Assembly (NCBI GenBank): GCA_964545165.1
Contig: CAZJEQ010000006.1
Location: 1 to 62,657, forward strand
Length of the DNA: 62,657 nucleotides
Source: an uncultured Candidatus Saccharibacteria bacterium
Lineage (GTDB): Bacteria; Patescibacteriota; Minisyncoccia; Phycocordibacterales; UBA2100
Direction of reading: 5' to 3'
In this document: piece by piece, positions 52,283-55,314 of the stretch
Numbering within the stretch: position 1 is the stretch's first letter
How the letters are laid out: every line of letters begins with the position of its first letter
Made by a program: the position numbers and the translations under genes
The notes under the pieces: model-generated
What the model was told of the DNA's origin: nothing
Database searches by the model: none
What the model saw: the letters and a program-made list of their open reading frames with translations, nothing else

Positions 52283-52582
52283 CTACTCACTGCACTCGAC
52301 TTCAACCTCGTTGCCGCTCGCATCGCAGCGCGTGCAGCCACGCCGCGTCGTCGTTGTGGTCGTCGTCGTCACGAACGTCGTGCTGGTCGCGACGACTGCC
52401 GGCTGCGCCTGGTAGCCCGGCTGTGCGTAACCGTAGCCACCTCCCCTGTTCGGATTGATGCTCCCGGAAACATTCAAGTAGCCAGCAGTCCCACGAGGAC
52501 CGCCAGCAACGCCACCGCTCGCCGCGCAAGCACCGAGCGACAGCGCACAGAGCGCGATCATCGAATACCGGACAACTTTCAT
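52283..52582 (-). CDS. small putative lipoprotein (99 aa)
   Basis: Start ATG 52582 after AAGGGAGattgcc. Signal peptide plus lipobox (ALSLGAC). Gly/Tyr-rich, poly-Thr tract, C-terminal CTRC...EC. Confidence 0.6.
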   Translation of the reverse strand: MKVVRYSMIALCALSLGACAASGGVAGGPRGTAGYLNVSGSINPNRGGGYGYAQPGYQAQPAVVATSTTFVTTTTTTTTRRGCTRCDASGNEVEVECSE

Positions 52583-52650
52583 GGCAATCTCCCTTTGGTT
52601 GGTTTGCCTTAGAACGCTGAGCCAGACGTCGTGTCTGGACAGTAATATTA

Positions 52651-52690
52651 TTATACAAAGAACCGCCTGTTGTGTCAAACAGGCGGTTCT
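52651..52690. terminator. bidirectional hairpin
   Basis: GAACCGCCTGTT-gtgtcaa-ACAGGCGGTTC. Confidence 0.7.
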
Positions 52691-52703
52691 CGTTGCTTCC
52701 CTT

Positions 52704-53534
52704 CTATTTATTACGCGGCTTGGAGGTACGCACCGAGTAGCCCGTCGTGATGGATTCGCCCGTCGTGATCGAGGAGCCTGTCGTCACGCTCTGGCCGACC
52801 GTGGTGGAGTAGCCCGTGGCGACGCTCGTGCCGGTTGTGATCGAGCTGCCGATGGTCGCGGATGCGCCGGTGTCGATGGAATTCCCCGTAGCGACGCTGT
52901 AGCTGGTCGCCAGCGAGTAACCGACCGGAATCGAGAGAGCATTCTGGATGGACATACCGGTCGTGATGCTTTCTCCAACCGTGAAGGAATTACCGACCGT
53001 CATCGAGTCCCCTGTCATGACGGAGTAGCCGACGGGGACGGAATCACCGACGGTGAGCGAATTGCCCGTATCGAGCGAGCCGCCAATGGTCGCGGAGATA
53101 CCGGTCTCAATAGAGTGACCAGCAGTCAGTGATCCCCCGGTCGTGAGTGAGCCGCCGACGGTGAGCGATCCACCGATGAGTGCTGAGAGACCCGTGGTCA
53201 TCGAGAAGCCACTCGTGGCCGAGACGCCTGTCTGCATCGAGCCGCCCGTGGTCGCGGAATTTCCGGTCGTCATCGAATTGCCTGTCGGAATACCGAAGCC
53301 TGTTGTCATTGAATTGCCGGTGGGGATCGATGCGCCTGTCGAGATGCAGCAGCCCGTCGAGCCGCTCGTGCTCGTGCGTGGCGAGCCACTCGTCGGAATG
53401 CTCTGCGCCAGCGGGCGCGAGACACCGATGTCGTGTACCGAATAGAGGAGGCCCGTCAGTGGCTCAGCGAAGACGCCGGCCGGGACCGCGAGCGCGATGA
53501 CGAGTGCGAGTGATGAGATTTTTTTCATAGGCAT
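52704..53534 (-). CDS. secreted protein made of 34 uninterrupted hexapeptide repeats (G-x-S-hydrophobic-T-T)
   Basis: Signal peptide MPMKKISSLALVIALAVPAGVFA. From GASIPT to GYSVRT, every sixth residue is Gly and every third-in-unit residue is Ser (204 aa, counted by hand). Confidence 0.8.
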   Translation of the reverse strand: MPMKKISSLALVIALAVPAGVFAEPLTGLLYSVHDIGVSRPLAQSIPTSGSPRTSTSGSTGCCISTGASIPTGNSMTTGFGIPTGNSMTTGNSATTGGSMQTGVSATSGFSMTTGLSALIGGSLTVGGSLTTGGSLTAGHSIETGISATIGGSLDTGNSLTVGDSVPVGYSVMTGDSMTVGNSFTVGESITTGMSIQNALSIPVGYSLATSYSVATGNSIDTGASATIGSSITTGTSVATGYSTTVGQSVTTGSSITTGESITTGYSVRTSKPRNK

Positions 53535-53539
53535 GGCAA

Positions 53540-54271
53540 TTAGATGATTCCGATAAATTCTGCGTCAAGTACGAAGCGAGCGCTTTTGCCGGTGAGGGTG
53601 TCGCAGGTCACGAGTGTGAGACGGGTCGACGATTTCGAGAGCGAGATAGTCACATCATCATTCACATCCACCTTGCTGATCGAGACCACGCGATAGAGAT
53701 AGCGGGTGCCATCGGCGTCCGTGAGTGTAATCGCTTCCCCTGCCGTAAGCTCAGGAATTTTATTGAAGGCCTTGTACATCTGATTGTGGACGACGGGCAG
53801 ATGTGAGGAGTGCGCGAAGATGATCACGTTGCCGGCCTCGCCGAGCTGCGCCGATGGCGCGTAGTGTGCCGGACCGTCCTTGAGTAGAGCATCGAGCGCG
53901 TCGACATCGGTGGTCGACGGATTTTGCACCGCAAGATCGAGATCAATCGCGCCAATCGAAATGCGCGCTGGTGCTTTGGCTTCTGGTGAGGAGATGTGCG
54001 CGGACTGCGACGCACGAATGCCGCCATCGCCTTCGAGCGTGAAGCTCATATCGCCGAGCTGGCTGTAATCGGTAAGCGCGATCGGCGCATCGCCTGCAGC
54101 GGCATGGGGTGCGGAGCGGGTCGGTCCGCCAGCTGGCGGAGTGCCATCGACGAAGTACGGCACGAAGCCGACTGAAGAGGCGGCCGAGAGGAAGAGTCCA
54201 AACAAGACGAGCGAAAGCAGCGCAAAAGCGGCTTTCGAGGGACGCGGTACGTGTCCATGAAGCTCCTTCAT
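53540..54271 (-). CDS. sortase-family transpeptidase
   Basis: N-terminal TM anchor. VIIFAHS (catalytic His region). RLTLVTCDTLTGKSARF (TLxTC Cys motif plus downstream Arg). Start set to ATG 54271. Confidence 0.85.
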   Translation of the reverse strand: MKELHGHVPRPSKAAFALLSLVLFGLFLSAASSVGFVPYFVDGTPPAGGPTRSAPHAAAGDAPIALTDYSQLGDMSFTLEGDGGIRASQSAHISSPEAKAPARISIGAIDLDLAVQNPSTTDVDALDALLKDGPAHYAPSAQLGEAGNVIIFAHSSHLPVVHNQMYKAFNKIPELTAGEAITLTDADGTRYLYRVVSISKVDVNDDVTISLSKSSTRLTLVTCDTLTGKSARFVLDAEFIGII

Positions 54272-54280
54272 ATCGGAAAA

Positions 54281-54286
54281 ATAATA
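54281..54286 (-). promoter_or_regulatory. TTGACA-17-TATTAT promoter, -10 box 9 nt before sortase ATG
   Basis: Minus strand TTGACAagtagccatttatgaagTATTATttttccgatATG. Coordinates given are for the -10 box. Confidence 0.5.
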
Positions 54287-54381
54287 CTTCATAAATGGCT
54301 ACTTGTCAAGTGCCCTTCCCGCACCCCGTAGCGTTGTCTATATAGAAACACGCCCCGAGGTGCGCTATAGTTGGCACACGT

Positions 54382-55314
54382 ATGGCCGATCCACATGCCG
54401 CCCCCCATACCCCACCCGTGCACGCTGCCCCTGCGAAGCGCTCTGCCAATGTGCTGGTCTCCAACATCCTGGCACTCGCCGGCTTCGCGATTCTCATCAT
54501 CATCGTCATCTGGGGCCTCTTCCACCTCGCGACGCTCTCCACCGGCTGGTTCTCAGGATTTTTTAATTCTGCCAATAGCAAAGACACGATTCAGGTCACA
54601 GCGCCCGAAAGCGCGATCTCAAACCGCGCTGCCAAGATATCGTGGCAGCACCAGGGTGGCGACGGACGGTACGCCTTTCTCTACGAGTGCACCGAGGGAC
54701 TCCAATTTGGTATTCCGCTGTTGAAAGAGGGAGAAACGACGCCAACACTCGCGCGCGTACCCTGCGGCACCGCATTTACGCTCGGTAATGCGACCAGCTC
54801 ACTCCTCGTCGTGCCGGTCCTCGAAGGATCATCCCCCATCGCCGCCAATATCAACATTGTCTTCGTCCCCGCTGCTGCTGGTGCGCAGGCCTCGGGGAGC
54901 GCGCGCATGACAGTCGTCGCGAGCGGCGCACCGACACAGCCGGAACCAGAACATGTCGGTACGACGGAGACGCCCGTGACGCCGCGACCAACAGCCGGCC
55001 CGGCAGATCTCATCGTCACAGTTACCGGTGCATCGACTGATGCGGGAGGATTCAGTGTCGTCACCTTTGATATCGCAAACACCGGCACTTCGGCGAGCGG
55101 TGGATATACCTTCAATGCCAACCTGCCGACCTCGCAGCCGTATACCTTCTACTCTGATCCGCAGGCCTCACTCGCACCGGGCGAGCACATCGTGAACACG
55201 CTGCGCTTCACACAGACCGTGCGCGGTGTCTTTACCGTCGTCGTCGATCCGCAGGACACGGTCAAGGAATCCAGCGAAACCAACAACGTCACCTCGTACG
55301 AGATCATTCGATAA
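54382..55314 (+). CDS. membrane-anchored CARDB-like domain protein
   Basis: One TM helix. C-terminal ADLIVTVTG...VVTFDIANTGTSASGGYTF...VVVDPQDTVKESSETNN resembles CARDB (DL.V...N.G...vD..n.v.E.nE.NN). Confidence 0.65.
   Translation: MADPHAAPHTPPVHAAPAKRSANVLVSNILALAGFAILIIIVIWGLFHLATLSTGWFSGFFNSANSKDTIQVTAPESAISNRAAKISWQHQGGDGRYAFLYECTEGLQFGIPLLKEGETTPTLARVPCGTAFTLGNATSSLLVVPVLEGSSPIAANINIVFVPAAAGAQASGSARMTVVASGAPTQPEPEHVGTTETPVTPRPTAGPADLIVTVTGASTDAGGFSVVTFDIANTGTSASGGYTFNANLPTSQPYTFYSDPQASLAPGEHIVNTLRFTQTVRGVFTVVVDPQDTVKESSETNNVTSYEIIR

Follow-up and report, generated by a model that had tools for sequence, protein, structure and literature searches.

A predicted secreted hexad-repeat protein family encoded directly behind a class-E-like sortase in Patescibacteriota

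In a 62,657-nt stretch of DNA from an uncultured Candidatus Saccharibacteria bacterium (contig CAZJEQ010000006.1 of assembly GCA_964545165.1; the whole stretch is called the window hereafter), a sortase gene is directly followed by a gene for a 276-aa protein that is built largely of six-residue repeats (hexads). By sequence comparison, this hexad protein is the first known member of a small, previously undescribed family, which appears restricted to one Kaiserbacteria-like sortase subclade, and the tie between the family and the sortase is robust but unexplained. The sortase domain is known, while the hexad family and its coupling to a sortase are undescribed in the literature searched. The explanation that we favor, at about even confidence, is that the hexad protein is a lineage-specific, secreted repeat protein with a structural role at the cell surface, fast-evolving and probably beta-rich and elongated, which would be co-expressed with a sortase that anchors IPYTG proteins. 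Coordinates are positions in the window, and both genes lie on its minus strand (Table 1).

The hexad open reading frame (ORF) begins with a signal peptide composed of an n-region with KK, a hydrophobic core and V-F-A ahead of the cut, and the N-termini of all orthologs are comparable; the protein is therefore predicted to be secreted. A short Ser/Thr/Pro-rich linker follows, which ends at Cys62-Cys63. Residues 67–270 form 34 hexads with zero insertions or deletions, in which position 1 is Gly in 32/34, position 3 is Ser in 33/34, position 4 is I/L/V/M/A in 32/34, Thr predominates at position 5, and T/V/I fills position 6 in 31/34. The original prediction, made from the DNA letters alone, had described the signal peptide, the Cys-Cys pair, the basic SKPRNK tail and these 34 indel-free units with Gly at position 1 and a near-constant Ser at position 3, and all of these were found again on the sequence; however, it placed the start of the array too late, as five degenerate hexads (GVSRPL, AQSIPT, SGSPRT, STSGST and GCCIST) precede the clean ones in the same phase. 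In total, 39 hexads share one phase, with Ser at position 3 in 37 of them, and the Gly register was reached by 0 of 20,000 composition shuffles.

At its C-terminus, the protein ends in ...GYSVRTSKPRNK, with no LPXTG-like motif and no hydrophobic segment, and the same holds for all orthologs. This agrees with the absence of an LPXTG signal noted at first; lacking a sorting signal, the hexad protein is not a classical sortase substrate. Two motifs near the N-terminus were considered and rejected. The EPLTG as a non-canonical sorting motif is present in the window copy only and not in the orthologs, and a lipobox reading of the 'LTGC', 'ILGC' and 'LTFC' before Cys does not hold, as they lie 20–40 residues past the signal-peptide core in most orthologs. 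An exact-protein database look-up returned no record for the window hexad protein.

The repeat units at the DNA level have diverged to a mean pairwise identity of 51% (47% at the amino acid level), Tandem Repeats Finder reported only three small arrays, and the invariant Ser is encoded by TCN as well as AGC codons. The diverged DNA units, mixed Ser codons and few small arrays together indicate that it is the protein sequence of the repeat that is maintained, as had been proposed. Contigs from four independent bioreactor-metagenome runs were identical to the region, so the repeat array is not an assembly artefact. No variation of the repeat number between samples was seen, at a coverage of only 2–7x in the contigs.

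The gap between the sortase stop codon and the hexad ORF start is exactly 5 nt, as stated in the original prediction for a TLVTC sortase and a 276-aa ORF. Of the limits given there for the locus, 52704 coincides with the hexad ORF, while 54286 falls slightly short, since the sortase ORF reaches 54292. A promoter-like site overlaps the first codons of the sortase ORF, with its -10 element inside the first 21 nt, and a terminator-like hairpin, whose inner stem was placed at 52682..52663 by a hairpin scan, lies behind the hexad gene. Because the promoter-like site covers the first codons of the ORF, the real sortase start is probably at Met8 (54271), possibly on an mRNA with a very short leader or none; the alignments of the sortase relatives begin only at about residue 17. 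The site and the hairpin, which are consensus matches only, frame the two genes and support a two-gene operon, so that the predicted co-transcription of the pair is upheld at the level of sequence signals.

Table 1. Coordinates of the features at the sortase–hexad locus (positions in the window) and example ORFs at related sortase loci. TM, transmembrane segment.
Feature	Position	Strand	Remarks
Promoter-like site TTGACA-17-TATTAT	54281..54309	(-)	11/12 consensus positions, at the sortase start; consensus match only
Sortase ORF, 250 aa	53540..54292	(-)	Pfam Sortase PF04203 and TLVTC
Hexad-repeat ORF, 276 aa	52704..53534	(-)	Predicted secreted; same position in orthologous loci
Signal peptide, residues 1-23	53466..53534	(-)	MPMKKISSLALVIALAVPAGVFA, cut before EP; read from sequence
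Cys62-Cys63	53346..53351	(-)	Positions 2-3 of the degenerate hexad GCCIST
39-hexad array, residues 37-270	52725..53426	(-)	Single register; last 34 (residues 67-270) clean [G]-x-S-[ILVMA]-[T/x]-[T/V]
Basic tail SKPRNK	52707..52724	(-)	Holds the only two Lys of the mature hexad protein
Terminator-like hairpin	52661..52692	(-)	GAACCGCCTGT...ACAGGCGGTTC, GC-rich, then a T-rich tract; 12 nt past the hexad stop codon
Candidate sortase substrate, 659 aa	47039..49018	(-)	...SLSQIPYTGFDFGP + TM + tail
IPYTG + TM ORF at L001	11168-12702
IPYTG + TM ORF at L007	7478-8689
IPYTG + TM ORF at L010	3896-5863
IPYTG + TM ORF at L015	3153-5867
IPYTG + TM ORF at L021	7288-9279

A word-indexed search with the window protein found only an unrelated cytoplasmic hexad protein, and the orthologs P0062 and P0151 were found with the family alignment as query. 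Among the eight aligned orthologs (the window, L001, L003, L004, L009, L010, L015 and P0062), the columns without variation are nearly all those of the Ser at position 3 of a hexad. The emphasis on Gly at position 1 in the original prediction does not carry over to the orthologs, which frequently have Ser or Ala in its place. At position 4 they carry Val or Ile, with Tyr in the group of L010, L015 and P0062, Pro is very often found at position 5, and position 6 holds Thr or Val. L003, L001 and L004 keep the register without a break over 43, 26 and 25 hexads, respectively, and one or two shifts occur in L009, L010, L015 and P0062. Near the array start, L003 and L009 carry CxC, L004 two separate Cys, L010, L015 and P0062 one, and L001 none. 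The hexad proteins range from about 157 to 313 aa in length, and the closest pairs share 54–63% identity versus 78–82% for their partner sortases, indicating that they are fast-evolving, as is typical of surface proteins.

Neighbourhoods were then scored by the gene immediately downstream of each sortase, with a signal peptide and a period-6 Ser/Thr-rich protein as the criterion. The hexad gene directly follows the sortase gene in L001, L003, L004, L009 (= L031, L036), L010, L015 and L022/L023, and a check that started from P0062 placed it 3 nt behind a sortase gene on each of its two contigs; the ortholog P0151 sits on an 812-bp contig with a fragment upstream of it. All orthologs with an examined neighbourhood are located 3–30 nt downstream of a sortase gene on the same strand, and no hexad ORF or paralog was found elsewhere in the ~450 kb of the window and sampled flanks. 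The linkage of homologs to sortases, which the original prediction had proposed to check, was thus borne out by this survey. In a neighbour-joining tree of the sortases, the hexad-positive loci are confined to one clade, in which they make up 9/14 tips including the window, and the other large clade has none, a pattern that fits one gain followed by some losses.

The protein encoded upstream can be placed in the sortase family by sequence. It matched Pfam PF04203 at 4e-19 (69 bits vs. a cutoff of 26.6), has an N-terminal TM segment, and aligns its His (..FAHSSH..) and Arg (..KSARF..) to the catalytic residues of the class E structures 5GO5 and 5GO6, which are the nearest solved sortase structures (E 1e-4). 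TLVTC or TIVTC is kept in 34/36 sortase relatives. The NCBIfam class E sortase model NF033747 was the best-scoring class, yet with 43 bits vs. a cutoff of 160, so that the protein should be called class-E-like only. Its relatives at 37–60% identity come from metagenome-assembled genomes assigned to Candidatus Kaiserbacteria, Paceibacterota and other Patescibacteria, and also from metagenomes of groundwater, lakes and soil; they point to a Candidatus Kaiserbacteria-like (Parcubacteria) source genome for the window.

Candidate substrates of this sortase lie nearby. A 659-aa protein, predicted to be secreted, is encoded 4.5 kb downstream of the sortase gene on the same strand, and the arrangement SL[S/T]QIPYTG[F/L]D followed by a TM and a 45–120 aa tail was found in 28 ORFs in the window and 21 related sortase loci, always on the sortase strand. 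In L010, an IPYTG protein, the sortase, the hexad protein and then a small membrane protein are encoded contiguously, and the IPYTG protein, sortase and hexad protein are also contiguous in L015. IPYTG plus TM looks like a non-canonical sorting signal of these sortases of the candidate phyla radiation (CPR), of which the literature searched held no mention, and the neighbouring IPYTG + TM proteins are likely the actual substrates. The coupling to the sortase, called unexplained at first, is partly explained by these candidates.

Some features of the surrounding genes were noted beside these results. In the N-terminal half of the 659-aa protein, an acidic/aromatic 11-residue unit (SYGGSFYDD[A/S]) is repeated in tandem about 13 times ahead of a low-complexity region rich in Tyr, Pro, Asn and Gln, and the hexad proteins of L010, L015 and P0062 end in a Tyr/Asn/Pro-rich tail (YSYPNYYNE..PTY) akin to that region. 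The 4-TM protein downstream in L010 was considered as a member of the conserved module and rejected, being kept only among the close relatives of L010. Just downstream of the hexad gene, the ORF 52283..52678 (-) encodes a small lipoprotein-like protein (…LSLGAC…) with a run of eight Thr, and a perfect 12/12 TTGACA-17-TATAAT site before it, at 52678..52650 (-), overlaps the hairpin of the hexad gene. On the other side, the divergent gene 54382..55314 (+) encodes a membrane-anchored protein with a CARDB domain (Pfam 6.9e-10), likely another cell-surface protein beside the sortase.

The contiguous clusters of L010 and L015, together with an adjacency that is obligate among the hexad genes found, could also suit a role of the hexad protein as amine acceptor, in which the sortase, by analogy to pilus sortases, would join cleaved IPYTG proteins to the tail Lys or to the N-terminus and so form a covalent heteropolymer. 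In 6/8 orthologs, the only Lys of the mature protein falls in a short T-S-[HKR]-P-[KRA] tail straight after the last hexad, which presumably recalls the YPK motif of pilins. However, L009 lacks Lys altogether and the tail of L001 has none, the Lys-free repeats may be mere composition, and in most genomes related sortases and IPYTG proteins do without a hexad gene, so we regard such a role as improbable. Likewise a long shot is a secreted oligomeric beta-rod (e.g., an intertwined trimer locked by the Cys pair) that, without a sorting signal, would act as acceptor or scaffold for IPYTG proteins via the lone tail Lys, giving a covalent surface fibre in a minimal-wall cell.

In the favored surface structural protein, each hexad would form a short beta-strand (S-phi-T-T, phi being the hydrophobic position 4) and a two-residue turn (G/S/A-x). 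Stacking of the hexads would give a long, beta-rich rod, fibre or coat, which might be an oligomer locked via the N-terminal cysteines. Made together with the sortase, the hexad protein would be assembled at the cell surface next to the IPYTG proteins that the sortase anchors.

Results on expression, on the sortase loci and on the fold weigh against this picture. RNA runs for the source were looked for and none was found. As for the loci, about 10 of about 50 with room downstream of the sortase carry the hexad gene, and the other 40 or so lack it, some holding unrelated genes there. The slot of L002 (6671-7569), L005 (1995-2875), L026 and L027 is filled by a conserved small gene pair of 73–74 aa and 226–231 aa, and membrane or other proteins occupy it in other loci. 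This suggests that the place after the sortase is a variable insertion site, and since most sortases are without the hexad gene, the adjacency could be positional rather than functional, with the hexad gene as one inherited occupant. Nevertheless, the hexad gene is retained down to about 53% sortase identity, its gap is always 3–30 nt on the same strand, and it was never seen elsewhere in the sampled flanks, which make a purely positional linkage very improbable.

As for the fold, AlphaFold2 run on the single sequence gave no fold, with a mean predicted local distance difference test (pLDDT) score of 33.8, so that the fold is not established. An alignment in which the window protein was joined by two orthologs and 21 hexad proteins that are analogs raised the mean pLDDT to 55.9 (core 60–71) with a predicted TM-score of 0.42, still of low confidence, and the resulting model placed a 4-residue strand on S-phi-T-T and a 2-residue turn on G-x in each hexad. 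One beta-strand per hexad is plausible on this model, which was possibly biased toward a solenoid because the analogs are non-homologous and some of them solenoid-like. Foldseek found no significant match of the model in the PDB (best E 1.3, TM-scores 0.12–0.16, with the left-handed beta-helix (LbH) enzymes LpxD, LpxA and GlmU first) or in BFVD (best E 0.024, TM-score at most 0.43). In a permutation test for stacking similarity between hexads, |z| was below 1 at all lags from 1 to 7 in the window protein, with no lag-3 (18-residue) signal, and no consistent preferred lag was found in the orthologs. The continuous solenoid with 18 residues per turn put forward in the original prediction was thus not established, and a canonical 18-residue left-handed helix is not supported; an obligate oligomer or an extended glycosylated stalk is possible.

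Database searches likewise placed the repeat in no well-described family, as expected at the outset. The window hexad protein gave nothing meaningful against Pfam and NCBIfam, with no Hexapep or LbH match at E up to 10, and a Pfam scan of the eight family members at the same limit gave a sub-threshold match for one member (LbH_EIF2B 0.004, Hexapep 0.13). By hhalign, the family profile aligned with canonical Hexapep proteins at 2.5% probability, and against the PDB it found no LbH match, the best being a toxin beta-barrel segment at E about 0.08. An exhaustive phmmer search returned 150 period-6 proteins, with Hexapep-positive proteins at the top. Except for P0062, the inspected ones are analogs rather than secreted Ser/Thr-rich orthologs and were rejected as such, being either surface or phage-like Hexapep proteins or cytoplasmic proteins with GxS-phi repeats. 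P0001, P0015, P0017, P0007 and P0031 form a separate, apparently cytoplasmic family with an N-terminal domain MLITREMILEHTPCGEGLDWF… (precomputed Pfam PF27195) and G-x-S-L-x-V hexads, which is one among many unrelated proteins with a similar hexad grammar.

These searches also bear on whether the array is a canonical LbH after all, with 18 residues per turn and a Ser/Thr ladder that, as a speculation, would bind ice, mineral or a host surface in the manner of insect antifreeze proteins or of solenoid adhesins from bacteria. In a shifted register, [T/V/I]-G-x-S-[ILVMA]-x, the hexads weakly resemble the [LIV]-[GAED]-x2-[STAV]-x of LbH proteins, and this register (as [T/V/I]-G-x-S-phi-x) is used by the weak phmmer matches of the window protein in the PDB (E 0.03–4), 9/14 of which, including the best, are LbH enzymes (DapH, SAT, YrdA and LpxD). 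The Hexapep-positive proteins in the exhaustive search, the LbH enzymes leading the non-significant Foldseek list and the strand-and-turn pattern of the AlphaFold2 model point in the same direction. Against an LbH stand the Pfam, hhalign and profile results, the Foldseek scores and the lack of a lag-3 signal. Moreover, the orthologs replace Gly at position 1 by Ser or Ala, frequently carry Tyr at position 4 and have Pro at position 5, to all of which the tight triangular core of an LbH is poorly suited. We therefore regard a canonical LbH as quite unlikely.

The composition of the orthologs offers a further reading, in which the array is a stalk or spacer rich in Ser, Thr and Pro that is extended and for the most part non-globular, with probable O-glycosylation of the invariant Ser. 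It would be comparable to mucin-like regions that span the wall or to serine-rich repeat glycoproteins, and would make up a hydrated coat on the surface. Ser and Thr make up 28–44% of the mature orthologs, the sole invariant residue is one Ser per hexad, and Pro is common at position 5, all of which fit such a stalk, as does the very low AlphaFold2 confidence; the Ser/Thr content and the Pro also weigh against the favored reading. A weak match to the NCBIfam serine-rich repeat protein model NF033849 (35.8 bits vs. a cutoff of 650) is in the same vein. However, an indel-free register over 39 diverged hexads (25–43 in orthologs) is unexpected for a disordered linker, the constantly hydrophobic or aromatic position 4 and the beta-branched position 6 follow a beta-strand pattern, and the operon lacks a glycosyltransferase gene. 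A glycosylated stalk is accordingly unlikely, though we give it some weight beside the beta-rich structural protein that we favor.

The prevailing view of CPR bacteria is that they live attached to other microbes, and to our knowledge their surface structures are almost uncharacterised. The locus defines an undescribed clade-restricted family of perfect-hexad proteins, predicted to be secreted and genetically tied to a sortase. A side result is the conserved SL[S/T]QIPYTG + TM arrangement, a candidate non-canonical signal for Kaiserbacteria-type sortases. If the hexad protein is indeed a fibre, scaffold or sortase acceptor, both the architecture of bacterial surfaces and the short-period beta-repeat folds would gain a new element; as a mere glycosylated spacer, it would be of local interest.

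Compared with known systems, the hexad protein shares with Hexapep/LbH proteins (PF00132; LpxA, DapH and the C-terminal domains of GlmU) the six-residue period and a small residue beside an aliphatic/beta-branched pair spaced i, i+4. It differs from them in being predicted to be secreted without an enzyme domain, in an invariant Ser where LbH repeats vary, in swapped large and small core positions, in the Tyr and Pro common in its orthologs, and in the missing 18-residue signal and the failed Pfam and profile–profile tests. With the Thr-rich antifreeze proteins of spruce budworm and Tenebrio it would have in common, if its fold is a solenoid, a short period, Thr-richness and outward Ser/Thr ladders. 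However, these proteins have 15- or 12-residue coils with disulfide bracing, which the hexad protein matches neither in sequence nor in fold, and its source, a bioreactor metagenome, gives no evidence of a cold habitat.

Among sortase-associated surface proteins, the serine-rich repeat glycoproteins of Gram-positive bacteria are likewise Ser-rich and repetitive, and the hexad protein weakly matches NF033849, but they carry LPXTG, an (S-x)n dipeptide periodicity and accessory Sec, whereas the hexad protein has a period of six, a conserved hydrophobic position and no anchor. Gram-positive pilus operons similarly pair a sortase gene with one for a structural protein that is secreted, and in both cases a single Lys sits within a short motif containing P. 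Unlike pilins, the hexad protein lacks Ig-like pilin domains, with no pilin domain found in Pfam or NCBIfam, as well as a sorting signal at its C-terminus; its Lys is not universal in the family, and the Lys motif of its tail resembles the YPKN-type pilin motif only loosely. The Pam pili of CPR bacteria, which are built of Ig-like, donor-strand-exchange pilins, were considered as relatives and rejected as unrelated (bioRxiv 10.64898/2026.03.03.709456). The literature searched held nothing relevant on sortase-linked solenoids or on the hexad family.

In the class E sortase/chaplin system of Streptomyces, small secreted beta-rich proteins without a sorting signal form a surface layer that is tethered by their sortase-anchored relatives. 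In sequence, the hexad protein does not resemble chaplins, its anchored IPYTG partner is unrelated to it, and its sortase scores far under the class E cutoff. The likeness lies in the arrangement: in both systems a class E or class-E-like sortase stands beside a secreted protein that lacks a sorting signal, and the solved sortases nearest to the one in the window are of class E.

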